DNA of 64,000 nt from Candidatus Omnitrophota bacterium (GTDB taxonomy: Bacteria; Omnitrophota; Omnitrophia; Omnitrophales; Aquincolibacteriaceae): NCBI GenBank assembly GCA_043732705.1, contig JAYTHE010000002.1:56385-120384 (forward strand), in the 5' to 3' direction. Under the pieces are notes generated by a model. It worked only from the letters and a program-made list of their open reading frames with translations, was not told the DNA's origin and ran no database searches. Positions 6,006-57,014 of this stretch are shown in pieces. A program made the translations under genes and the position numbers. The number at the start of each line of letters is the position of its first letter. Position 1 is the stretch's first letter.

Positions 6006-6009
6006 CCGC

Positions 6010-6130
6010 TCCTTATATGCCTAATCCGCTTTAACCAGCGGTACGGGGGACCCAAGTTCTTGGGGCGAATCATCGCAAGATGAAAGGTTATCTCGACCTT
6101 AGCCCGTCAGCTAACTTCGTCGGCATCAAG
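6010..6130 (+). promoter_or_regulatory. Candidate c-di-AMP (ydaO/kimA-type) riboswitch in the 5' leader of the APC transporter gene
   Basis: The leader contains ACGGGGGACCCA and UGGGGCGAAUCA elements between the promoter and the start codon. The downstream gene has the APC-plus-C-terminal-domain architecture of KimA (YdaO), the classic gene under this riboswitch. Called from memory of the motif and not verified by a covariance model. Confidence 0.4.
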
Positions 6131-6138
6131 GAGAAAAA

Positions 6139-8151
6139 ATGGAAACCAAACAGCCGGCATCCGGCTTGCCCGAGTCATTTCTTAAACAGATCAAAAAAAC
6201 TCTTTTCGGACCGCCCCGGAATCTTCACGATCCTTCGATCAAGCATCAGCTTTCTCTGATCGCATTTTTTGCTTGGGTTGGATTGGGTGCCGACGGACTT
6301 TCTTCTTCAGCCTACGGACCGGAAGAAGCTTTTCGCGCGCTCGGTCAAAATACCTATCTCGCCATCTTGCTTGCGGCAGCGACGGCATTAACTGTGTTTA
6401 TTATTTCCTCCGCCTACAGTCGCATTATTGAAACTTTTCCTTTGGGCGGCGGAGGTTACGTTGTCGCGACCAAGCTCTTAGGAAAGCCCGCTGGCGTAGT
6501 TTCGGGCAGCGCCTTGCTAGTGGATTACATTCTCACCATTACCGTTTCCATTGCTGGTGGAGGTGACGCGCTTTTCAGCCTTTTGCCGCAAGCCTGGATG
6601 GTTTTCAAACTACCGACAGAGATTGCCGCGATCGGTCTTTTGATCCTGATGAATTTGAGAGGCGTGAAAGAATCCGTTGCCGCGCTTGTGCCGATTTTTT
6701 TGATATTTGTGATCACGCACATCGTTCTCATTTTAGGTGGACTTTTGATTCATATTCCCGAAGCACCGCGCATTGCCAAAGAAGTGACGGATGGCTTTCA
6801 TTCTGGAGCATCCACGTTGGGATGGGGCGGCATGGCGCTGCTTTTTCTACGGGCCTATTCTTTAGGCGGCGGAACCTATACCGGAATTGAAGCTGTTTCC
6901 AACGGTGTCGGTATTTTGCGCGAACCCAAAGTGATTACCGGAAAAAGAACCATGCTTTATATGTCAGTCTCACTTGCGCTCACGGCGGGCGGGTTGCTTG
7001 TCTGCTATATGCTTGCGCATGTGAAGCCGGTGGATGGGCAAACTTTGAATACGGTTCTTGCAACACAATTGATGGGCCCTCTTCATGTCGCGGGTATTCC
7101 GATCGGCCATGCGATTGTTCTAATCACAATTTTATCCGAAGCCGTTTTGCTTTTGGTCGCGGCACAAACCGGATTTATTGACGGCCCGCGCGTAATGTCC
7201 AATATGGCGCAAGATTCATGGCTGCCGAAACGTTTCGCGATGCTTTCCGACCGTTTGACGATGCAAAACGGAATTCTTCTGATTGGCGCCGCTTCGATTG
7301 CGATTCTTGTCTACACTCGCGGCCACATAGGAACCTTAGTGGTTATGTATAGTATCAATGTGTTTTTGACTTTCTCTTTATCGGAATTAGGAATGATGCG
7401 GCATTGGTTTCAAAGCCGCAAAATTTCTAAAAAATGGAAGCGTGACTTTTTGATTCAAGCCGCGGCATTTACGCTCTGCTTCTCGATTCTTTGTGTCATG
7501 GTGTATGAAAAATTTACAGAGGGCGCGTGGGTGACTTTGTTGATTACTTCTTCCTGCATCGCGCTTTGCTTCATCATTAAAAACCATTATTACAGTGTCG
7601 CGAAGCGTATCCATGAAATCGATAAATTATTTGAAGCTGTTCCGCCGGATAACCGCGCGGCAGCGATGCTAGAATTTAATGAGAAAAATCCAACAGCGGT
7701 AATTTTAGTCGGCGGACATAGCGGATTAGGCACGCATATTCTTTTGAATATTTTCAGGTTATTTCCAAGCTCATTTAAGAATGTGGTGTTTTTAACCATT
7801 GGTATTGTGGACAGTACTTTTTTTAGGGAGAACAACCAAGTTGAAGTGGTCACGAAACAAAGCGAAGACATGCTCGGGCGTTATGTCGAAAGCGCGCGTC
7901 ATATGGGTGTTCCCGCGCGGTTTGAGTTTCATGTGGGCACGGAAGTGGTACAGTCGGCCGCGGAGCTTTGCATTGAGGTTTCAAAAAAATATCCCCGCGC
8001 GGTCTTTTTTGCGGGCGAGCTCGTGTTTGAACAGCCGCAGTGGTATCACCGCATTCTGCACAATGAGACAGCGTATGCGATTTTAAGACAAATCCGGTTC
8101 GCGGGATTGCCGATGGTTATTCTTCCGATACGGATTCGAGAGAAACTCTGA
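6139..8151 (+). CDS. APC-superfamily permease with a C-terminal cytoplasmic domain, possibly a KimA-like K+ transporter
   Basis: About 12 TM segments (aa 40-470) followed by a roughly 200 aa soluble domain. A riboswitch-like leader precedes it. Confidence 0.55.
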   Translation: METKQPASGLPESFLKQIKKTLFGPPRNLHDPSIKHQLSLIAFFAWVGLGADGLSSSAYGPEEAFRALGQNTYLAILLAAATALTVFIISSAYSRIIETFPLGGGGYVVATKLLGKPAGVVSGSALLVDYILTITVSIAGGGDALFSLLPQAWMVFKLPTEIAAIGLLILMNLRGVKESVAALVPIFLIFVITHIVLILGGLLIHIPEAPRIAKEVTDGFHSGASTLGWGGMALLFLRAYSLGGGTYTGIEAVSNGVGILREPKVITGKRTMLYMSVSLALTAGGLLVCYMLAHVKPVDGQTLNTVLATQLMGPLHVAGIPIGHAIVLITILSEAVLLLVAAQTGFIDGPRVMSNMAQDSWLPKRFAMLSDRLTMQNGILLIGAASIAILVYTRGHIGTLVVMYSINVFLTFSLSELGMMRHWFQSRKISKKWKRDFLIQAAAFTLCFSILCVMVYEKFTEGAWVTLLITSSCIALCFIIKNHYYSVAKRIHEIDKLFEAVPPDNRAAAMLEFNEKNPTAVILVGGHSGLGTHILLNIFRLFPSSFKNVVFLTIGIVDSTFFRENNQVEVVTKQSEDMLGRYVESARHMGVPARFEFHVGTEVVQSAAELCIEVSKKYPRAVFFAGELVFEQPQWYHRILHNETAYAILRQIRFAGLPMVILPIRIREKL

Positions 8152-16645: not shown

Positions 16646-16695
16646 AGACCGACGTGGTTTTTTTGCGCTTGTCCGGCAGCAGTTTAATGCTCTGC

Positions 16696-16701
16696 TATAA
16701 T
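16696..16701 (+). promoter_or_regulatory. -10 box (TATAAT) positioned 7 nt upstream of a leaderless mini-ORF
   Basis: TATAAT-gcccgcc-ATG. The same arrangement occurs at 33132 as TAGAAT-gcgcgc-ATG. Confidence 0.4.
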
Positions 16702-16708
16702 GCCCGCC

Positions 16709-16813
16709 ATGAATCCCGTTAGAAAATTAAACAATAAGGCGTGGGCAGGTTTGCTCAAATTTGTGGCAAATAGATTGTCTTTAGAGAACAATAATTTTTT
16801 GAGGAGTTTCTAA
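16709..16813 (+). CDS. Leaderless mini-ORF (34 aa: MNPVRKLNNKAWAGLLKFVANRLSLENNNFLRSF), a paralogue of the ORF at 33144..33236, ending 4 nt before the next gene
   Basis: The N-terminus ATGAAYCCCGTTAGAAA is conserved at nucleotide and peptide level, and both copies end in NF-stop inside TTTCTAA. The ends are complementary (CCCGTTAGAAA / TTTCTAACGGG). Confidence 0.4.
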   Translation: MNPVRKLNNKAWAGLLKFVANRLSLENNNFLRSF

Positions 16814-16817
16814 CGGG

Positions 16818-17834
16818 ATGAATTCTTTACCTTGGAAGCGCATGAAAGAAGACAAGCTGATGAATGAAACCATCAGTCGCCTTGGCCTTCAAATCGCAGG
16901 TTCGGCGCTTGAGCCTTTGATCGCGCGATTGTACGCGGATCTTGCCGCAAAAAACCTCAGTTTTAACCCGCCTTGTTTTTTAGCCGATGAATGGTTTTGT
17001 CCGGTGGGGGTGCCTGCGATTGGAATTCCATTTTATTTGGCAAGCCCGCGTTTGCGCAAATTGGAGAAAAAAATGATTCTCGAAGTTGAGGGTGGTAGTA
17101 CGACAGAGTTTATGAAGCTCATGCGTCATGAAGCCGGGCATGCTTATTCTTATGCTTATGGACTTTACCGTAAACCTGCTTGGCGGGCTTTGTTTGGATC
17201 GGCCGCAACAGAATATCCTGATACTTATCATCCGCGCCCGTACAGCAAAAGCTACGTGATTCACCTTGAGAATTGGTATGCGCAAAGTCATCCGGACGAA
17301 GATTTTGCCGAAACCTTCGCGATTTGGTTAACGCCGGGCTTGAATTGGCGCAAGCGCTACAAAGGTTGGAAAGCGCTCAAGAAACTTGAGTTCGTGGATA
17401 AACTTATGAAAAGTTTGCATGGTAAGGTGCCTGTCTGCCTGCCGAAATCTGACTTACGTGAATTCGCGGGGCTGAATATGAAGCTTAAAACTTATTTCAA
17501 ACAAAAGATGAAGTTATACGAAGATACCTATCCGCATTTTTATGACCGTGATTTGAAATCGCTTTTTACGGATAAAGAAGAAGAGCGTTCTGCGGTGAAA
17601 GCTGCGGATTATTTGGGCAAAGCCAACGATAAGCTGGTGCGTGCGGTTGCATATTGGACTAAAGAAAAACGCTATACGATCGATCAGTTAATGAAGCGGC
17701 TTGTACGCCGCGCGGGAGAATTGGGGCTTTATGTCAGGGAAGGGCAGCAAAATACCGACATGCAGGCCTCGGCCTTCGTCTCAACACTTGTTTCAACCTA
17801 TCTTTTTACTGGAAAGTTTAAACGATCCAAATGA
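16818..17834 (+). CDS. Putative zinc-binding metallopeptidase-like protein (HEAGH motif)
   Basis: HEAGHAYSY HExxH motif. It is paired with an ATP-grasp gene downstream. Confidence 0.5.
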   Translation: MNSLPWKRMKEDKLMNETISRLGLQIAGSALEPLIARLYADLAAKNLSFNPPCFLADEWFCPVGVPAIGIPFYLASPRLRKLEKKMILEVEGGSTTEFMKLMRHEAGHAYSYAYGLYRKPAWRALFGSAATEYPDTYHPRPYSKSYVIHLENWYAQSHPDEDFAETFAIWLTPGLNWRKRYKGWKALKKLEFVDKLMKSLHGKVPVCLPKSDLREFAGLNMKLKTYFKQKMKLYEDTYPHFYDRDLKSLFTDKEEERSAVKAADYLGKANDKLVRAVAYWTKEKRYTIDQLMKRLVRRAGELGLYVREGQQNTDMQASAFVSTLVSTYLFTGKFKRSK

Positions 17835-17859
17835 GGGTGAGGGATTTATCTCGATCCAC

Positions 17860-17885
17860 TCATCCCCGCGAAGGCGGGGATCCAG
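17860..17885. repeat. REP-like palindromic unit, copy A
   Basis: TCATCCCCGCGAAGGCGGGGATCCAG: an 8 bp stem ATCCCCGC/GCGGGGAT with a GAAG loop. Confidence 0.5.
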
Positions 17886-17946
17886 GATGAACTATTACAT
17901 ATGCTTGAATTGAAAAAAATCTGGGATTGTTGATGAGGGGTCTTTT

Positions 17947-18966
17947 ATGAAGACGACACCGCGGGTTTTGGTTGCTTTCAATACGCTTTCCGCGTTTCCT
18001 CCCGATCAAGACTATACCGACGAATTGAAATTGCCGGATTGGCAGACGGAAGCGCATGTTGTGGCTGCTTTGCGCGAACTCGACTTTCCTTTTGAATTAC
18101 TTGGAGTCTATGACGACACATCGGTCTTTCAGAAAAAAATAGAATCTTTTAAGCCGGATGTCATTTTTAATCTGGTTGAACGTTTTAAAAACAGCGCGGC
18201 GCATGAAGCTGATATTGCCGCTTTTTTAAGGCTTACCGGCGTGCCTTTTACGGGTTGCGGCGCGACGGCGATTACATTGTGCAAAAATAAAGGCCTCGCG
18301 AAGCAAATTCTTTCGCATCACCGCATCCGCGTTCCGCAATTCGTCATCCTGCCGTTTAAAAAGAAAGTGCATCGGCCCAAGCGTTTAACTTTCCCGATTT
18401 TCGTGAAACCTTTAAAGGAAGAAGCTTCGGTTGGAATTTCACAGGCTTCCGTTGTGGATAATGACGATCAATTTTGCGAACGCGTGCAATTTTTGCACGA
18501 CACACTGAATCAAGATGTGATCGCGGAACAATTTATTTCGGGCCGTGAAATCTATGTTGGAATTATCGGCGATGACCGTCTCGAGGTTTTTCCGTTCCGT
18601 GAAATGGTTTTCTCGAGGGTTGATGATGAAGATCCTAAGATCGCGACTTACAAGGCTAAATGGGATGAAACTTACCGCAAAAAATGGGGTATTAAAAATA
18701 AGTTCGCGGATGATATTTCTCCGGCGCTTGAGGACAAAATTAAAAAATTGTCGAAACGCATTTACCGCGCGCTTGGAATTCGCGGCGCAGCGCGCCTTGA
18801 CTTGCGGTTAACATCCGAGGGCGAAGTTTTTTTTATCGAAGCGAATCCGAATCCGATGCTCGCGAAAGATGAAGATTTTGCTTTATCCGCGCAGAAGGCG
18901 GGGTTAAGTTATCCTGAATTAATACGGCGCCTAATTAACCTGGCGCCGGCCGAGGAAGAAGCATGA
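17947..18966 (+). CDS. ATP-grasp family protein (D-alanine--D-alanine ligase-like)
   Basis: ATP-grasp fold motifs, ending ARLDLRLTSEGEVFFIEANPNP. Confidence 0.7.
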   Translation: MKTTPRVLVAFNTLSAFPPDQDYTDELKLPDWQTEAHVVAALRELDFPFELLGVYDDTSVFQKKIESFKPDVIFNLVERFKNSAAHEADIAAFLRLTGVPFTGCGATAITLCKNKGLAKQILSHHRIRVPQFVILPFKKKVHRPKRLTFPIFVKPLKEEASVGISQASVVDNDDQFCERVQFLHDTLNQDVIAEQFISGREIYVGIIGDDRLEVFPFREMVFSRVDDEDPKIATYKAKWDETYRKKWGIKNKFADDISPALEDKIKKLSKRIYRALGIRGAARLDLRLTSEGEVFFIEANPNPMLAKDEDFALSAQKAGLSYPELIRRLINLAPAEEEA

Positions 18967-20195
18967 AATCGTTTCTCAAAAACTATTCCGAGTCACTGAT
19001 TTTACTTTCCGCGATTATTACCGGAGCATTGATCGGTGTTTTCTTTCCGGCTTTCGCGCTTACTCTCAAGCCTGTTGGGATCATTTGGCTGAATTTACTT
19101 TCGACCGCGGTGATTCCGCTCGTTTTCTTCTCCATTGCCGCCACTATCGCAAGTATGGGCAGTGGCAAACAGTTGAGCCGGATTTTAATCTGGATGATTA
19201 TTATTTTTACTGCCGCCAGCGTGATCGCGGCGGTTTTAATGTTAGCGGGTGTTTATTTTTTTCCGCCGGCGGCGACGATCAAACTCTCGCTTCAAACGGG
19301 CATTGAAATGAAACCATGGAATGCGGGCAAGTCGCTTGTTGAAGCTTTTTCAGTAGGTGATTTTGGTGAACTGCTGTCGCGCAAAAATATGCTGCCAATG
19401 ATTCTTTTTGCCGCGTTAATCGGCTGGGCTTCGCACGCGGCAGGGAAACAGGGCGAAACTTTTCGTCAGTATTTTATTTCGGGCAATGCCGTGATGATGA
19501 AAGTTATGCGGGGCATTATGCTCATCGCGCCGCTTGGGCTTGGTGTTTATTTTGCGGCGCTTGTGGCAGAAATGGGACCGCAAATTATGGGAACTTACGG
19601 CCAAATTGCCGGGCTGTATTATCCGTTTTCTTTTTCTTATTTTTTCATTTTTTTTACGTTTTACGCCTTTCTCGCGGGCGGCGTGAAATGGATTCCTGTT
19701 TTTTGGAAAAATATTATCCCGCCGTCATTGACCGCGCTCGGGACGGGCAGCAGCCTCGCGACCATTCCTTCCAATTTACAGGCTGCGGACCGCATGGGGA
19801 TTCCGCGCGAAACAAGTGAAATCGTGATTCCTGTCGGCGGCGTGATTCATAAATCAGGTTCGTGTCTTGCGGCCATCGTAAAAATTGCGCTGCTGCACCA
19901 GGTTTTTGGCGTGCCTTTTACCGGTATTGAAGCTTATGCGATTGCAGTGGGCGTGGCGGTTTTAAGCGGAGTAGTTATGGGCGGTATTCCCGGCGGCGGA
20001 TTTTTGGGGGAAATGCTGATCGTCAATCTTTATGGTTTTCCTCTGGAAGGCTTACCGATTATTTCCATGGTTGGAACGATTGTGGACCCGCCTGCGACTT
20101 TAGTGAACGCGACTGGCGATAATATCGCGAGCGCGCTTGTTTCCCGGTTGGTCTACGGAAAAAAGTGGCAAGTTAAACCGATTCAGCCCGGTTAA
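18963..20195 (+). CDS. Dicarboxylate/amino acid:cation symporter (DAACS family)
   Basis: Polytopic translation typical of GltP/DctA-type symporters. Confidence 0.75.
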   Translation: MKSFLKNYSESLILLSAIITGALIGVFFPAFALTLKPVGIIWLNLLSTAVIPLVFFSIAATIASMGSGKQLSRILIWMIIIFTAASVIAAVLMLAGVYFFPPAATIKLSLQTGIEMKPWNAGKSLVEAFSVGDFGELLSRKNMLPMILFAALIGWASHAAGKQGETFRQYFISGNAVMMKVMRGIMLIAPLGLGVYFAALVAEMGPQIMGTYGQIAGLYYPFSFSYFFIFFTFYAFLAGGVKWIPVFWKNIIPPSLTALGTGSSLATIPSNLQAADRMGIPRETSEIVIPVGGVIHKSGSCLAAIVKIALLHQVFGVPFTGIEAYAIAVGVAVLSGVVMGGIPGGGFLGEMLIVNLYGFPLEGLPIISMVGTIVDPPATLVNATGDNIASALVSRLVYGKKWQVKPIQPG

Positions 20196-29376: not shown

Positions 29377-29853
29377 ATGAAACAGTTAAATTTAGCTCTA
29401 CGGCCTCGTCGCAATCGCGTAACGTGTTTGGTTTTTATGCTGCTCGCGGTTGTGACATTGTCTTTGCCGCTTTATGCTGATTGTGACTCATCTGAAAGAA
29501 ATGGAACGATGAGCGAAGAAAGGGAGAGTGAGAGAGGTATGATGGGCGGCGGGAAAATGGAAATGCACGGCATGATGATGAAAATGATGATGCAAAAATC
29601 AGTCGTGGCAACGTCAGACGGCGGCATTGTAATTGTTGCCGGGAATAAAATTACTAAATACGACAAACATCTCAAGCTTGTGAATGAAGTCGAAACCAAA
29701 ATGGATATAGAAGACATGGAAAAGAAAATGAAGGGAATGATGAAGATGTGTCCCCTGATGAAGGGTGGAATGAAAACCAGAGAGGAACGGCCTGAAGAAG
29801 CTGTGTCAGGCGCTTCATCTGACGCAGACAGTGACCACTCGGCGCATCATTGA
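29377..29853 (+). CDS. Met-rich secreted protein, likely Cu(I)/Ag(I)-binding
   Basis: A signal peptide and runs such as [19 protein letters not shown] and [16 protein letters not shown]. Confidence 0.5.
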
Positions 29854-29863
29854 AGAGAGGTTT

Positions 29864-32038
29864 ATGAAAGAGCACGCTTGCTGTCGTTCTCCAGTTAAAG
29901 CAGAGCAACCGCCGCCAAAAAATGCCGGTGGTTACACTTGTCCGATGCATCCGGAGATTGAGCAAGACCATCCCGGAACTTGCCCAAAATGTGGAATGGC
30001 GTTAGAACCCAAAAATGCTTCTGCTGCGCCTGAAAATCAAGAATATCACGATATGTTGCGACGATTCTGGGTGAGCTTAGGTCTTTCTGTGCCCGTTGCC
30101 TTTTTTGCCATGACCGAAATGCTTCCAAATAGGCCGTTTCAAAGTTTTTTATCTATGCAGCATGTGAATTGGATCGAATTTGTTCTTGCAAGTGTTGTTG
30201 TGTTTTGGGGAGGGCTACCTTTTTTTGAGCGCGGTGTGGCGTCGATTATTCATCGCAGCTTGAATATGTTCACGCTTATCGCATTGGGTGTGGGTGTGGC
30301 GTATGTTTACAGCGCCTCTGCAACGCTTGCGCCTGGAATTTTTCCGGCAAACTTTCGCGGGCACGGCGGTGAAGTGGCGGTTTATTTTGAAGCCGCGTCT
30401 GTTATTACCGTTTTAGTTTTGCTGGGGCAGGTTTTAGAATTAAAAGCTCGTACGCAAACCGGTGAAGCGATTCAAGCACTTTTAAATCTTGCGCCAAAAA
30501 TGGCGCGTGTTATCGCGGCGGATGAAATAGAAAAAGACATTCCTATCGAAAATGTGCAGCGTGGCGATAAGTTACGTGTGCGGCCCGGCGAAAAAATTCC
30601 GTCGGATGGTTTGGTTGTGGATGGCGAGAGCGCAGTGGATGAATCGATGGTTACTGGCGAATCTATGCCCGTTGAAAAATCTAAAGGCTCAAAAGTTGTC
30701 GGCGGCACGGTCAATGGCACAGGCAGTTTAATTGTGCAGGCTGAAAAAATCGGCAGTGAGACTTTGCTTGCTCAAATTGTGCATATGGTCGGTGAAGCAC
30801 AACGCAGCAGAGCGCCGATCCAGCGTTTGGCCGACATCGTTGCGGCTTATTTTGTTCCGATGGTTTTGGTTGTAGCAGCGATTACTTTTTTTATTTGGGG
30901 GTTTTTCGGACCGGAACCGAAAATGGTTTATGCGATTGTAAATGCTGTGGCGGTATTGATTATTGCTTGTCCTTGCGCGCTAGGGCTTGCGACACCGATG
31001 TCTATTATGGTCGGCGTAGGCCGCGGCGCAACAGCCGGAATTTTAATCAAGAATGCCGAAGCGCTGGAGGTTTTTAGAAAAGTTGATACTCTGATTTTTG
31101 ATAAAACGGGCACGCTCACCGAAGGTAAACCCAAACTTGTTTCCGTTGCTTCCGCGCCCGGAATGAACGAAGCTGATTTTTTACGATTTGCCGCCAGTTT
31201 AGAACGCGCAAGCGAACACCCATTGGCGCAGGCGATTGTTAAAGGGGCCGAAGCAAAAGGTGTTCGCTTTTCCGAAATCCAAAATTTTAAATCGGTTACC
31301 GGCAAAGGCGTTCAGGGCACTTTGGACCGCAAGCAGGTTCTTCTCGGGAATCAAAAATGGATTGAAGAGCTGGGCGTTATTACCACGGATTTTTCCGCGC
31401 AAGCAGACAAGCTGCGTGAAGACGGCCAGACGGTTATGTTTGTGGCGGTTGAAAAGAAAATTGCGGGAATACTTGGCGTGGCCGATGCGGTTAAAGATTC
31501 GACGCCGGAAGCCATTCAATTGCTGCACCAAGACGGCCTCAGGCTCATTATGGTTACCGGCGACAATCCGGTCACGGCAAATGCGGTAGCAAAAAAACTG
31601 GGCATTGACGAAGTGCGCGCGGGTGTTTTGCCCGAGCAAAAAGGCGCAATTGTGAAAGAATTACAGGCGCAAGGCAAGCGTGTCGCGATGGCAGGTGATG
31701 GCGTGAATGACGCGCCCGCGTTGGCGCAGGCGGACGTGGGTATCGCCATGGGAACAGGTACGGATGTTGCGATGCAAAGCGCGGGAGTCACGCTTGTCAA
31801 AGGTGATTTGCGCGGCATTGCCAAGGCGCGCGCATTAAGCCGCGCGACGATGGCCAATATCCGTCAAAATCTTTTTTTCGCATTTATTTACAATCTTCTC
31901 GGTGTGCCGGTTGCCGCGGGAATTTTGTATCCTTTTTTTGGAATTTTGTTGAGTCCGATTATCGCCAGCGCAGCCATGGCTTTTAGTTCAGTTTCGGTTA
32001 TCATGAATGCATTGCGCCTACGCCGTATTTCTCTCTAG
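29864..32038 (+). CDS. copA: Copper-translocating P1B-type ATPase
   Basis: N-terminal [22 protein letters not shown] module, a TM CPC motif ([13 protein letters not shown]), DKTGTLT phosphorylation and [10 protein letters not shown] hinge motifs. The start is chosen at 29864 after an AAGAGAGG SD. Confidence 0.9.
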
Positions 32039-32117
32039 TTTTTGTCAAAATCTCAACCCTGATTTGTTTCCATTTGGTATGCGCAAATTTATTAAATCAA
32101 GAGTAAAATAAACGCTT

Positions 32118-33113
32118 ATGGCTAACCACAAACATTCTCACGCTAAAGGGCATTCTCATTCCCATGCTGTGATTGACCCGTCGATTGTGACGCATGAACG
32201 CGGGCTATGGGCCGTGAAATGGTCCTTCATTGTTTTAATGATTACAGCTGCTTTGCAGCTCATCGTCGTGATTCTTTCAAGTAGCGTTGCGCTGCTTGCA
32301 GATACCATTCATAACTTTGCGGACGCGGCGACAGCCATCCCGCTTGGTATTGCTTTTTTATTTGTCCGCTTGAAACCAAGCAAGCGTTTTAATTATGGTT
32401 ACGGACGCGTTGAAGATTTAGCCGGCGTTATTGTCATTTTACTAATTCTTTTCAGCGGAATTGTCGCCGCTTATCAATCTGTGAATCGATTTTTTCATCC
32501 GCAGGATATTCATCATTTGGGTATCGTTGCCTTAGCGTCGATTTTGAGTTTTATCGGAAATGAAGGTGTGGCAATTTTTAGAATCAAAGTCGGCAAAGAA
32601 ATTGGCAGTGCGGCTTTAATCGCGGATGGTTATCACGCGCGCATTGACGGGTGGTCAAGCCTGGCTGTGCTTGTCGGGGCGATCGGAATTTGGCTCGGCT
32701 TTCCGCTTGCAGACCCGCTCATGGGTTTATGTATTACCGCTTCAATTCTTTATATCACATGGATATCCAGCAAAGAAATTTTTACTCGATTGTTGGATGG
32801 TGTTGATCCGGATGTGATTCATGAAGTCGAACATTCTACCGGGCATGTGCAAGGCGTCCAGAAAATTGGAGAAATTAAAGCGCGCTGGTCGGGGCATAAA
32901 CTTTACGTTGAAATGGCGATTGCCGTAAAAAGCGATGCCTCCGTGAAAGAAGGGCATGACATAGCCAAGGAAGTGCGTCACCAAATCCTGCATCATCTTC
33001 CGCATGTCGAGCAAATTATGATTCATGTCGATCCGGAAAATGAATTCGGAAGCGCGCATTATAAAATCGGCCCGCATGCGCATGGCGATGGCCCGGTGCA
33101 TTCGCATGACTGA
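32118..33113 (+). CDS. Cation diffusion facilitator (CzcD-like) transporter
   Basis: His-rich N-terminus, six TM helices with HxxxD-type motifs and a C-terminal His-rich tail. Confidence 0.8.
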   Translation: MANHKHSHAKGHSHSHAVIDPSIVTHERGLWAVKWSFIVLMITAALQLIVVILSSSVALLADTIHNFADAATAIPLGIAFLFVRLKPSKRFNYGYGRVEDLAGVIVILLILFSGIVAAYQSVNRFFHPQDIHHLGIVALASILSFIGNEGVAIFRIKVGKEIGSAALIADGYHARIDGWSSLAVLVGAIGIWLGFPLADPLMGLCITASILYITWISSKEIFTRLLDGVDPDVIHEVEHSTGHVQGVQKIGEIKARWSGHKLYVEMAIAVKSDASVKEGHDIAKEVRHQILHHLPHVEQIMIHVDPENEFGSAHYKIGPHAHGDGPVHSHD

Positions 33114-33143
33114 AGCTTTTTGATCTTCTGTTAGAATGCGCGC

Positions 33144-33236
33144 ATGAACCCCGTTAGAAATTTACCAAAAATCGCGCAGCCATTCATTTTCAGCCTGGTG
33201 AATTTGGACAACACGGTATTGAAAAAGAATTTCTAA
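33144..33236 (+). CDS. Leaderless mini-ORF (30 aa: MNPVRNLPKIAQPFIFSLVNLDNTVLKKNF), a paralogue of 16709..16813
   Basis: TAGAAT -10 box 6 nt upstream. It shares the conserved MNPVR start and NF-stop end, which sits 5 nt before the next ATG. Confidence 0.4.
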   Translation: MNPVRNLPKIAQPFIFSLVNLDNTVLKKNF

Positions 33237-33241
33237 CAAAA

Positions 33242-33406
33242 ATGAAACTGCCCATTGCACGGCTGCTTCCGCTATTGGCAGTGCCTGTCATTATTTTAAC
33301 CGCGGTTATGACGGTTATTTTTTGGCAGCAAAACAAAACGAAAATCAGTTTCTCTGATTATGGCGAGCCGCCACCACCTCAGTTAATAAAACATATGCAG
33401 AGATAA
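33242..33406 (+). CDS. Unannotated small membrane protein (54 aa: MKLPIARLLPLLAVPVIILTAVMTVIFWQQNKTKISFSDYGEPPPPQLIKHMQR)
   Basis: It lies immediately downstream of mini-ORF 2 and has a single predicted TM helix. Below the ORF-track cutoff. Confidence 0.3.
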   Translation: MKLPIARLLPLLAVPVIILTAVMTVIFWQQNKTKISFSDYGEPPPPQLIKHMQR

Positions 33407-56079: not shown

Positions 56080-57014
56080 TGTTCCGCTCCACGTTCCACG
56101 CCCCACGCCCCACGGTTTTCATTCGTGGCCCGTGGCTCGTGGCCCGTGGCTCCAAATAAATTTGAAAGTTCGTTAAGTAATTCCGTGTTATTTCTTTTTT
56201 TTGCCCCAAGTTCTAAGATTCTAAGTTTTTCATTGTACATGGCTTGTGCGGCTTGGGTTTGCGCAGGATTGAGAATACCGGATGCGATGGTTTCCGCCAA
56301 AGCTTTGACGCGAAAACGGTCCATGGCTTCGTATTTGTGCGAAAGCTGGTCTTCATGTCCGCCATATTTTTTTAAATATTCTTCCTCGATCAAACCGACA
56401 GGGTAGCGCGATGCGATGCGCAGCCACATTTCATAGTCTTCACAAGCGGGGTAACTTTCATTAAAGCGCCCGACTTCATCCAAAAGCGAACGATGAATCA
56501 TGACCGCGGACGGACTGATCGCGCAAAGCGGCAGGCAATGTTCAAAAATCCAGCCGCCTTCTTTTTCGTGTTTTTTCATTTTATTGACGCGTACGCCTTT
56601 ACGGATCCAAATTTCATCAGTCTGGCAGATTTTATATTCCGGATTTTTCAGAAAAAAATTCATTTGAGCCGCAAGCATATTAGGCAGCCATTCATCGTCG
56701 GAATCAAGAAATGCGATCCACTCGCCTTTGGCTTGTGCGATGCCGGTGTTGCGTGCGGCGGAAACTCCGCGATTGGCTTGGCTGATAAATTTAATGGGGA
56801 ATGCTTTAGGAGTGATGGGAGCTTCGCCAAAACCCAAATGATGTTCTTTTCCGTTCGGCAAATAAAGTTTATGGATTAGCTCTTCGGTATTATCGGTGGA
56901 GCCGTCATCGACTACGATCAGTTCAAACTCCGCGCCCTGCTGGGTCAGCACCGAATGAATAGCGCGACGCACAATGTCGGCCCGGTTATATGTGGGGATA
57001 ATCACTGAAATCAT
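56076..57014 (-). CDS. Family 2 glycosyltransferase
   Basis: VIIPTYNR...VVDDGSTD...DSDDEW GT-A motifs. Confidence 0.8.
   Translation of the reverse strand: MISVIIPTYNRADIVRRAIHSVLTQQGAEFELIVVDDGSTDNTEELIHKLYLPNGKEHHLGFGEAPITPKAFPIKFISQANRGVSAARNTGIAQAKGEWIAFLDSDDEWLPNMLAAQMNFFLKNPEYKICQTDEIWIRKGVRVNKMKKHEKEGGWIFEHCLPLCAISPSAVMIHRSLLDEVGRFNESYPACEDYEMWLRIASRYPVGLIEEEYLKKYGGHEDQLSHKYEAMDRFRVKALAETIASGILNPAQTQAAQAMYNEKLRILELGAKKRNNTELLNELSNLFGATGHEPRATNENRGAWGVERGAEQ
56087..56152. repeat. Long imperfect hairpin built from (CCACGNN)4 / (CGTGGNN)4 arms at the GT2 / radical-SAM gene junction
   Basis: In mRNA sense it reads GCCACGGGCCACGAGCCACGGGCCACG-aaugaaaac-CGUGGGGCGUGGGGCGUGGAACGUGGAGC. The 3' arm covers the SD GGAG of the downstream gene. 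Confidence 0.5.

Follow-up and report, generated by a model that had tools for sequence, protein, structure and literature searches.

A 64,000-nucleotide stretch of DNA from a Candidatus Omnitrophota bacterium (assembly GCA_043732705.1, contig JAYTHE010000002.1; the whole stretch is referred to as the window) contains two loci at which a very short open reading frame (mini-ORF) that begins with MNPVR and ends with F stops just before the start codon of another gene. An original prediction had interpreted these mini-ORFs as paralogous leader peptides that regulate the unrelated genes behind them. Our analysis indicates that both loci are very probably insertions of one widespread family of small, nonautonomous inverted-repeat elements that resemble MITEs (miniature inverted-repeat transposable elements). 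The residues MNPVR(K/N), the final F-stop, and the stem that joins the two ends all derive from the terminal repeats of this element, which is absent from an orthologous locus encoding a 95% identical protein. Copies of the family have in common the terminal inverted repeats YCCCGTTAGAAAT and ATTTCTAACGGGR, which enclose a variable interior of approximately 20 to 170 nt; the copies in the window, with 105 and 94 nt, are too small for a transposase. The features of the first locus are as follows.

16693..16701 (+): extended -10 box TGcTATAAT, predicted host promoter of the leaderless Peptidase_Mx-like gene, outside the inserted element
16709..16713 (+): ATGAA, the original start codon plus 2 nt, with the left direct repeat TGAA at 16710-16713 (assigned from empty sites)
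16709..16813 (+): mini-ORF of 34 codons plus TAA, opened by the original start, traversing the element, and closed by the stop of the 3' repeat
16714..16818 (+): inserted inverted-repeat element, 105 nt, TCCCGTTAGAAA ... TTTCTAACGGGA (assigned from colinearity with empty sites and shared termini)
16714..16725 (+): 5' terminal inverted repeat TCCCGTTAGAAA, coding for mini-ORF codons 2-6
16801..16806 (+): Shine-Dalgarno-like GAGGAG, just inside the 3' repeat and 11 nt 5' of the ATG
16807..16818 (+): 3' terminal inverted repeat TTTCTAACGGGA, holding the mini-ORF stop TAA at 16811-16813
16818..17834 (+): gene for a 338-aa putative zinc metallopeptidase (PF15887, Peptidase_Mx-like), heading a peptidase/ATP-grasp/SDF symporter cluster
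16819..16822 (+): right direct repeat TGAA, which forms, with A16818, the ATGAA that is the working start of the gene

The insertion at locus 1 is documented by empty sites. We compared the region with five orthologues of the 338-aa gene, which share 95% (L128), 85% (L129, L124/125, and L123, each), and 74% (L126) protein identity with it. At all five loci, a TGnTAKAAT box is followed after 6-7 nt by an ATG right at the gene start, and the element is absent. The closest of these loci, L128, reads tctgcTAGAATgccgcccATGAACCCTTTACCC, and the empty sites in L128, L129, and L124 all read ...ATGAA|C.... Once positions 16714-16822, that is, the 105-nt element and one TGAA, are removed from the window, the remaining sequence aligns without a gap across the junction with all five orthologues. 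This colinearity indicates (i) that this is a natively leaderless gene family, in which -10 box and first ATG are the gene's own, and (ii) that the element entered after ATGAA, so that TGAA flanks it on both sides. Filled and empty sites were also found within the candidate phyla radiation (CPR): rplX is preceded by the element in L030 and lacks it in L040, L083, and L099, and rpmJ is preceded by it in L051, L056, and L008 and lacks it in L032.

The leaderless architecture noted in the original prediction, a -10 box 6-7 nt before an ATG at both loci, has thus held up. At locus 1, where 7 nt separate TGcTATAAT from the ATG at 16709, the host gene is predicted to be natively leaderless, its orthologues conserving a -10 box 6-7 nt upstream of the start codon and no Shine-Dalgarno sequence; a simple sigma-70 scan found no -35 box there. 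The upstream similarity of the two loci is explained by the recurrence of the promoter form TGnTAnAAT-GCNCGC-ATG at other genes of the window. At 57014 (-), 10052 (-), 10776 (+), 34450 (+), and 8174 (+), a long ORF opens 6-7 nt behind a TGnTAnAAT box, in many cases with a GC-rich GCNCGC discriminator; leaderless genes therefore seem to be common in this organism. Public gene calls misplace the starts of leaderless orthologues: P0005 (L124/L125, gene 2001-2975) is called 14 residues short, from an internal ATG, and P0001 (L128, gene 261-1286) gains 3 residues through a start call at an ATG within the -10 box.

Within the window, the 17-mer ATGAAYCCCGTTAGAAA occurs exactly twice, and its reverse complement is found with two mismatches at 16807-16823, where 0.37 matches are expected by chance. 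Since there are only two copies in 64 kb and the upstream likeness is in part a generic promoter consensus, a chance resemblance of two promoter-proximal regions, or a pair of remnants of a duplicated gene 5' end, might be considered. We regard this as a practically negligible possibility, as the same pair of termini, with flanking repeats, recurs in more than 240 copies from other organisms and no paralogous coding sequence lies behind the two loci. The original prediction had itself named such remnants as an alternative, and in this it came close to the truth: the sequences are remnants, of a mobile element and not of a duplicated gene 5' end.

To compile further copies, we scanned 185,579 species genomes (GTDB, one genome per species) with the 18-mer CATGAAYCCCGTTAGAAA, which retrieved at least 119 loci. 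This query carried the flank of a start codon (CATGAAY...), and the 129 copies derived from it are referred to as the CATGAA sample. A metagenome scan with the flank-free pattern CCCGTTAGAAAN{50,80}TTTCTAACGGG retrieved at least 120 loci and provided another set of 129 copies, the unbiased sample. All counts given for the genome matches and for the two samples are among the matches listed. The partner arm ATTTCTAACGGGRTGAA lay 5-157 nt downstream of the 5' arm in 110 of 121 genome matches. Complementarity of the terminal pyrimidine and purine was seen in 126 of 129 copies of the CATGAA sample (T-A in 95 and C-G in 31, with 3 exceptions). The hosts found in the genome scan were almost all metagenome-assembled genomes of Patescibacteria/CPR, including Saccharibacteria, Paceibacteria, and Kaiser-, Doudna-, Nomura-, and Vogelbacteria, among others; a few were Omnitrophota or carried the label Planctomycetia. 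The genes downstream of the copies in the CATGAA sample span 129 Pfam families with unrelated housekeeping functions, among them HPF (4 copies), L36, L2, TsaD, SecDF, adenylate kinase, pyruvate kinase, GyrA, and ClpP, which rules out a ligand- or pathway-specific regulator.

The arrangement of the copies is that of a mobile element. Local bursts of 4-5 copies in stretches of 5-14 kb occur in L150 (7179-9770), L040 (3870-7100), L153 (1074-4460), and L253. Tandem copies that share ATGAA are present in L040 and L119, and in L097 (4315-4440) one copy, flanked by CAAG/CAAG, is nested within a second copy at the loop of its apical hairpin, the enclosing copy being fused in frame to a 439-aa ORF. Decayed copies were seen in L093, L117, and locus 2 of the window. 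Where a long ORF starts at the 5' ATG, it represents a fusion with a host gene and not a transposase: the N termini of PurT (L036) and MurG (L150) are extended by in-frame copies, so that both of these CPR proteins start with MNPVRN..., and a minimal copy in L150, with an interior of approximately 9 nt, is translated in frame inside a MurD-like ORF. Three copies only were found on 2 of 2.9 million viral contigs (L257, L258, and L259; IMG/VR 3300031952_000413 and 3300038429_000794), with imperfect flanking repeats, and phages were rejected as vectors.

Interiors are very diverse, although subfamilies exist; those of the two window copies match none of the other interiors with which they were compared. 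Near-identical interiors were found in unrelated metagenomes (L137, L156, L182, L196, L205, L230, L253, and others), which suggests that some subfamilies were recently active. One recurrent interior, TTCCAGCGGGGCATTAAACCCCGCCGGAATTATTCTAAAATCTAACCCCGCTGCAGAGCAGCGGGGCATTA, contains two GC-rich hairpins, and a second subfamily begins with GGGCGGGGCTTTGACCCCGCCC.... Conservation of the inner motif TAATCGAATAGGGTTCGG in the GCGGACGCG subfamily (seen in L003, L084, L091, L112, and others) does not depend on the reading frame, and a 4-nt bulge, TCCT, is always on the 3' side of the extended stem. Searches of the literature by sequence and by topic returned no description of the element, and the papers that contain the terminal sequence do not deal with repeats of bacteria. 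Neither Patescibacteria nor start codons figure in a review of prokaryotic MITEs from 2024. The family thus seems to be undescribed.

The flanking repeats reveal the target of insertion. In the unbiased sample, the 4-nt repeats on the two sides agreed fully (4/4) in 87 of 129 copies, and another 24 copies showed agreement at 3/4 positions; the sequences were TAAA (39 copies), TGAA (31), TCAA/TTGA (7), TGGA, and others. Secondary copies within the genome loci show that the repeat changes on both sides together (TGGA/TGGA, TGCG/TGCG, TAAA/TAAA, TTGA/TTGA, and CAAG/CAAG). A purine precedes the left repeat in 92% of the unbiased copies, and the target is consequently R|TRAA. We considered a 5-nt duplication that includes the terminal purine, but rejected it: the base before the left repeat is G in 54% and A in 38% of cases and is not matched by the 3' terminal purine, which tracks instead the 5' pyrimidine (C 85%/G 85%). 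With respect to placement, 117 of 129 copies in the CATGAA sample have a long ORF that begins exactly at the 3' R-TG. Since the search pattern contained ATG, this concentration at gene starts is largely a selection bias, as shown by the flank-free scan, in which 38 of 129 copies were located at gene starts, 26 at the stop codon of the upstream gene, and 73 (57%) at neither. Targeting specific to start codons was rejected on these grounds, and the data point to a general small insertion element for which the start codons ATGAA and GTGAA are one form of the target.

At start codons, the ends of the element have consequences for translation. Read from the displaced start, the 5' repeat encodes M-NPVR(K/N). 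The 3' repeat, TTTCTAACGGGR, followed by TGAA, offers (i) in frame 1 a TAA located 4 nt before the new start, (ii) in frame 2 a TGA that overlaps the new start as ATGA, and (iii) in frame 3 a read-through into the gene, in which case the element becomes an N-terminal extension. The 3' terminal purine together with the duplicated TGAA recreates ATGAA or GTGAA; at locus 1, the last base of the element, A16818, is the A of the regenerated ATG. On rereading the sequence, we confirmed the 34- and 30-codon ORFs of the original prediction, with their shared starts and ends and a stop within TTTCTAA 4-5 nt before the next ATG; the distance is 4 nt at locus 1, where the peptide (MNPVRKL...LRSF) is MNPVRKLNNKAWAGLLKFVANRLSLENNNFLRSF, the stop is the TAA at 16811-16813, and the next ATG is at 16818. 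The two window peptides share only their first and last residues because these are encoded by the terminal repeats. The predicted complementarity between the first codons and the stop region was likewise found at both loci. At locus 1, 16713-16725 pairs with 16807-16819 over 13 bp, and the RNA fold (-34.6 kcal/mol, z = -3.8) has one closing stem, which is made by the terminal repeats.

The reading frames of the copies argue for frame-specific selection at start sites. Among the 122 copies of the CATGAA sample with an interior of at least 40 nt, the three classes of TAA frame relative to the 5' ATG contained 57, 36, and 29 members, the in-frame class (57/122) being represented beyond expectation. 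Within this class the interior was free of stops in 42 of 57 copies, compared with 5/57 and 7/57 in the control frames. The same tendency was seen in the unbiased sample, where the ATG frame was open in 17 of the 38 start-site copies and the other two frames in 4/38 and 5/38; at other positions every frame was open in 27-36% of copies. Both window copies are of the in-frame, open type.

These observations can be assembled into a sequence of events. At locus 1, the element entered a natively leaderless gene right after ATGAA, so that the promoter and start of that gene now lie at the left end of the element. In the transcript the two repeats pair, which gives the "long-range stem" of the original prediction. 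Ribosomes would still load at the original 5' AUG and translate the peptide encoded by the element, which would melt the stem; after termination within the 3' repeat, they would initiate anew at the regenerated start, 0-4 nt away. Such a hand-over would make the insertion tolerated rather than lethal. From the open-frame statistics we give this ribosome hand-over by termination-reinitiation roughly an even chance. At locus 1, the GAGGAG may permit extra, independent initiation; a strong Shine-Dalgarno-like motif at this position is present in 5 of 129 copies of the CATGAA sample, and 3 of the other 4 are labeled non-CPR (Planctomycetia, Planctomycetales, and Omnitrophota).

These data also bear on the proposal that the mini-ORF is a dedicated regulatory leader peptide, that is, a leaderless ORF that senses translation while an attenuation-like stem gates the downstream operon. 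In its favor are the genuinely leaderless architecture, a stop codon 4-5 nt ahead of the following ATG, a stem that takes in the two start codons, and a preference for an open ATG frame among start-site copies. Against it stand the closest orthologues, which keep promoter and gene without the element, and the occurrence of the same sequence before 129 unrelated Pfam families and also at intergenic and intragenic positions and at stop codons. The peptides are unrelated apart from their nucleotide-fixed ends. Nor does the stem behave as the attenuator that had been proposed: there is no alternative terminator/antiterminator structure, no particular codons are enriched or conserved as regulatory codons, no single pathway is concerned, and a site scan of both loci found no terminator-like site on the + strand between mini-ORF and gene. 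A dedicated leader peptide is hence extremely unlikely. What survives of the original proposal is coupled translation, which is plausible given the ATG frame kept open (42/57 and 17/38), although not as the work of a dedicated regulatory leader. The most fitting view of the element is that of selfish DNA whose ends are "translation-transparent"; regulatory effects, such as lower or structure-dependent expression or the stabilization of mRNA by a 5' stem, would be secondary.

The second locus has the following features.

33129..33137 (+): extended -10-like TGtTAGAAT, 6 nt 5' of the ATG at 33144; same form as the L128 promoter tctgcTAGAATgccgcccATG and as other genes of the window
33144..33148 (+): ATGAA, the presumed original start, with the left direct repeat TGAA at 33145-33148 (by analogy with locus 1)
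33144..33236 (+): mini-ORF of 30 codons plus TAA (MNPVRNL...KKNF), stop at 33234-33236
33149..33242 (+): second copy of the element, 94 nt
33242..33406 (+): 54-aa hydrophobic ORF, of uncertain status as a gene
33243..33246 (+): right direct repeat TGAA

TGtTAGAAT, which a simple promoter scan did not call, is probably the host promoter of a leaderless small ORF, judging from its form. The 5' repeat CCCCGTTAGAAAT (33149-33161) is intact and ATGAA is present on both sides of the copy, whereas the 3' repeat is decayed to ATTTCTAAC (33229-33237) followed by AAAAA in place of GGGR. From the TAA to the ATG at 33242 there are 5 nt. The stem has 11 bp, and the fold (-18.9 kcal/mol, z = -0.9) does not reach significance when taken alone. 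Where the original prediction had the two loci "compensate" by extended pairing on opposite sides, we see terminal repeats that vary and decay, and not an RNA stem under compensatory evolution. Its description of the downstream genes was borne out by Pfam for the peptidase-like/ATP-grasp cluster of locus 1; it was not for the small membrane protein of locus 2, since the 54-aa ORF has no Pfam family and no detectable homologue and is absent from the gene calls of the public assembly. This ORF has one predicted hydrophobic helix and a PPPP motif. Directly upstream of locus 2 (29831-33113) lies a metal-efflux pair, a copper-type P-type ATPase and a histidine-rich cation diffusion facilitator (CDF) transporter. 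An empty site was not found for this locus, as three relatives of the CDF gene (79, 77, and 76% identical) are not syntenic downstream and the ORF has no homologues. By its structure, locus 2 would belong to the same element family, a placement that we make with somewhat lower confidence.

A number of observations weigh against an interpretation as MITE-like insertions with translated ends. (i) In approximately half of the start-site copies the ATG frame is closed by an early stop, and post-termination scanning or independent initiation must hence also occur. (ii) Locus 2 has no empty-site proof, a degenerate 3' end, and an unconfirmed downstream ORF. (iii) A search confined to the approximately 1.7 Mb of fetched loci yielded neither an autonomous copy nor a transposase carrying these ends. 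(iv) When copies are oriented by the TRAA strand, the 156-165 significant similarities between interiors are all on the same strand and none is on the opposite strand. (v) The termini are near-invariant across distant phyla and the interiors very diverse, which makes for an atypical MITE family; the invariance could reflect a host function for the element ends. Compared with what defines MITEs, we thus found small size, shared terminal repeats, a varying target-site duplication, empty sites (at locus 1), and dispersed, nested, and tandem copies, but neither an autonomous insertion sequence (IS) with the same ends nor insertion in either orientation relative to the target. Pairs of ends at long distance with matching repeats, which might have marked an autonomous parent, all resolved into separate short copies.

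Copies flanked by TAAA are oriented at random to the neighboring genes (13:12). Taken together with the same-strand interiors, this means that insertion is polar relative to the nonpalindromic 4-nt repeat. Such strict polarity is unexpected for a symmetric DDE transpososome, and recombination at a core of homology or a single-strand mechanism would fit it. One may therefore consider a polar integrating element in place of a DDE MITE, with a 4-nt asymmetric TRAA core shared by the joined ends and the target, whose ends evolved to be "translation-transparent" and which spread through CPR/Patescibacteria and Omnitrophota, where its 5' stem on many housekeeping mRNAs is tolerated and perhaps exploited. 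We hold this to be possible but doubtful. Ends of the IS200/IS605 type with a fixed right cleavage site were rejected, since related interiors carry different repeats with the two sides still matching. An integron attC-like site was dropped because the GTT/AAC boxes stand in opposite order in a single element.

The near-invariant ends, found across many candidate phyla while the interiors diverge, would also be expected of a conserved, nonmobile structured RNA in the 5' untranslated region (5' UTR), inherited vertically as an expression module of CPR and Omnitrophota and read at its ends by a host factor such as a protein, an RNase, or the ribosome. In favor of this, the element precedes hpf in four genomes as judged by protein search and in L016 as judged by eye, and rpmJ in three; approximately 35 copies of the GCGGACGCG subfamily in the CATGAA sample, read by eye, all have one orientation to the gene; and an internal ACGGGRT in some copies could pair alternatively with the 5' arm. 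The presence and absence of the element at orthologous sites argues against a nonmobile RNA, as do flanking repeats that vary from copy to copy yet are 4/4 identical between sides, nested and tandem copies, the 57% of unbiased copies at neither start nor stop, and the random orientation of TAAA-flanked copies to genes. Rfam 15, searched at gathering and permissive (E <= 10) thresholds with the window, both loci, and 18 CPR loci that carry the element, returned no family for the element (the window, either locus at E <= 10, or the 18 CPR loci), matches elsewhere being a c-di-AMP riboswitch and tRNAs; a known RNA family or riboswitch was dropped accordingly. A 5' UTR RNA of this kind is thus very unlikely. 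The c-di-AMP riboswitch, an aptamer of the ydaO/yuaA type, matches RF00379 over its full length with 85.5 bits at 6008-6140 (+) and is the only Rfam family in the window at gathering score. Two further readings of the arms were set aside: a CsrA site, because on reading the sequence the GGGGTG variant lacks GGA, and mimicry of the anti-Shine-Dalgarno sequence, for which the match to the rRNA tail (16S 3' end) is only approximately 7 nt.

A mobile element may also have been exapted, acquiring a host function at start sites, for example as a 5' stem that protects against 5'-end-dependent decay or as a switch sensitive to temperature or RNase III. The stem starts at nt 3 of the predicted transcript and takes in the A and U of the downstream AUG, selection at start sites appears to be frame specific, and the element recurs before the highly expressed hpf, rpmJ, rplB, and rplX. 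A precedent exists in the Correia elements of Neisseria (PMC2649163). On the other side, the closest relative of the window organism manages without the element, and the 3' repeat of locus 2 has decayed as expected without constraint. Exaptation would be conceivable from these features, but we consider it rather unlikely.

The gene neighborhood at locus 1 (16818-20195) consists of the PF15887 peptidase, a D-Ala-D-Ala-ligase-like ATP-grasp protein, and an SDF symporter. The first two are kept together in relatives (L121, L123, L124, and L129), and the symporter stands behind the pair in only some of them.

Several implications arise from these results. (i) Conserved peptide ends and a covarying stem mimicked a new leader-peptide regulator and are in fact the termini of selfish DNA. 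(ii) The element is abundant in CPR/Patescibacteria and Omnitrophota, ultra-small bacteria of lineages usually considered streamlined. (iii) Its ends allow it to occupy the start codons of essential genes (ribosomal proteins, HPF, MurG, and PurT) without being lethal, which amounts, in unculturable organisms, to an experiment by nature on leaderless initiation, on reinitiation, and on the tolerance of altered N termini. (iv) Gene callers are systematically misled by the element in their choice of start sites. (v) The insertion is strictly polar, which is unusual and bears on the mechanism of transposition or recombination. What is apparently new is a MITE-like family that combines ends that regenerate a start codon and carry stops with polar insertion.

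The behavior of the element recalls a number of known systems. Among general bacterial mechanisms, termination-reinitiation couples the translation of adjacent genes, and leaderless mRNAs are initiated at a 5'-terminal AUG; the features of both are present here, with a stop 4 nt before or overlapping (AUGA) the next start and a 5' AUG 6-7 nt after the -10 box. Unlike in coupled gene pairs, the arrangement is created by a mobile insertion, and the upstream "gene" is a peptide encoded by the element whose interior is not conserved. In the leader-peptide attenuators trpL, hisL, and pheL, too, an operon is preceded by a short ORF that is spanned by RNA pairing, but the element has no runs of regulatory codons, no terminator/antiterminator pair, and no pathway specificity, and it is not conserved in orthologues. 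In translational bypass, as in the byp elements of Magnusiomyces mitochondria and in T4 gene 60, there is an analogy, and no more, in that a mobile insertion and its duplication provide matched codons flanking a hairpin (AUGAA ... R-UGAA); in contrast to byp, there is no sign of hopping, and the open-frame statistics favor ordinary translation and termination. The piggyBac repeat, CCCTAGAAAGATA, is accompanied by a TTAA duplication, and IS1380 repeats start with CC and generate 4-5-bp duplications. The CCC start, the TAGAAA, and the 4-nt A/T-rich flank of the element are similar, a likeness that may serve as a lead; on the other hand, the target is not palindromic, the element inserts in a polar manner, and its surroundings did not reveal a transposase of this kind.

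The closest parallels are with small repeats of other bacteria. The Correia elements CREE/NEMIS of Neisseria, ERIC/IRU, and RUP are also approximately 100-150 bp in length, and their co-transcribed repeats fold into a long stem (PMC2649163, PMC2229807, PMC10969869). They have in common with the present family a short flanking duplication, many gene-adjacent copies, presence or absence between relatives, and the potential to change the expression of adjacent genes; the stems of Correia MITEs are bound or cut by RNase III and alter adjacent gene expression (PMC2649163). The element differs from CREE, ERIC, and RUP in that it has no sequence similarity to them, its target is R|TRAA with a 4-nt repeat rather than TA, and its insertion is polar. 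Its ends regenerate a start codon and provide stops in the two other frames, its interiors are extremely diverse, no parent IS is known, and its hosts are CPR and Omnitrophota. The Rickettsia palindromic elements (RPE) are, in the account of Ogata et al. 2000 given in PMC10969869, selfish DNA inside protein-coding genes. The likeness is one of behavior only, palindromic mobile repeats persisting in genes by in-frame translation, as seen here in PurT, MurG, and the MurD-like ORF. RPE are approximately 150 bp long, specific to Rickettsia, and conserved in peptide sequence throughout, whereas in the present family the ends alone are conserved, most copies of the unbiased sample are intergenic, and the start-codon case is one of stop and restart, not of fusion.

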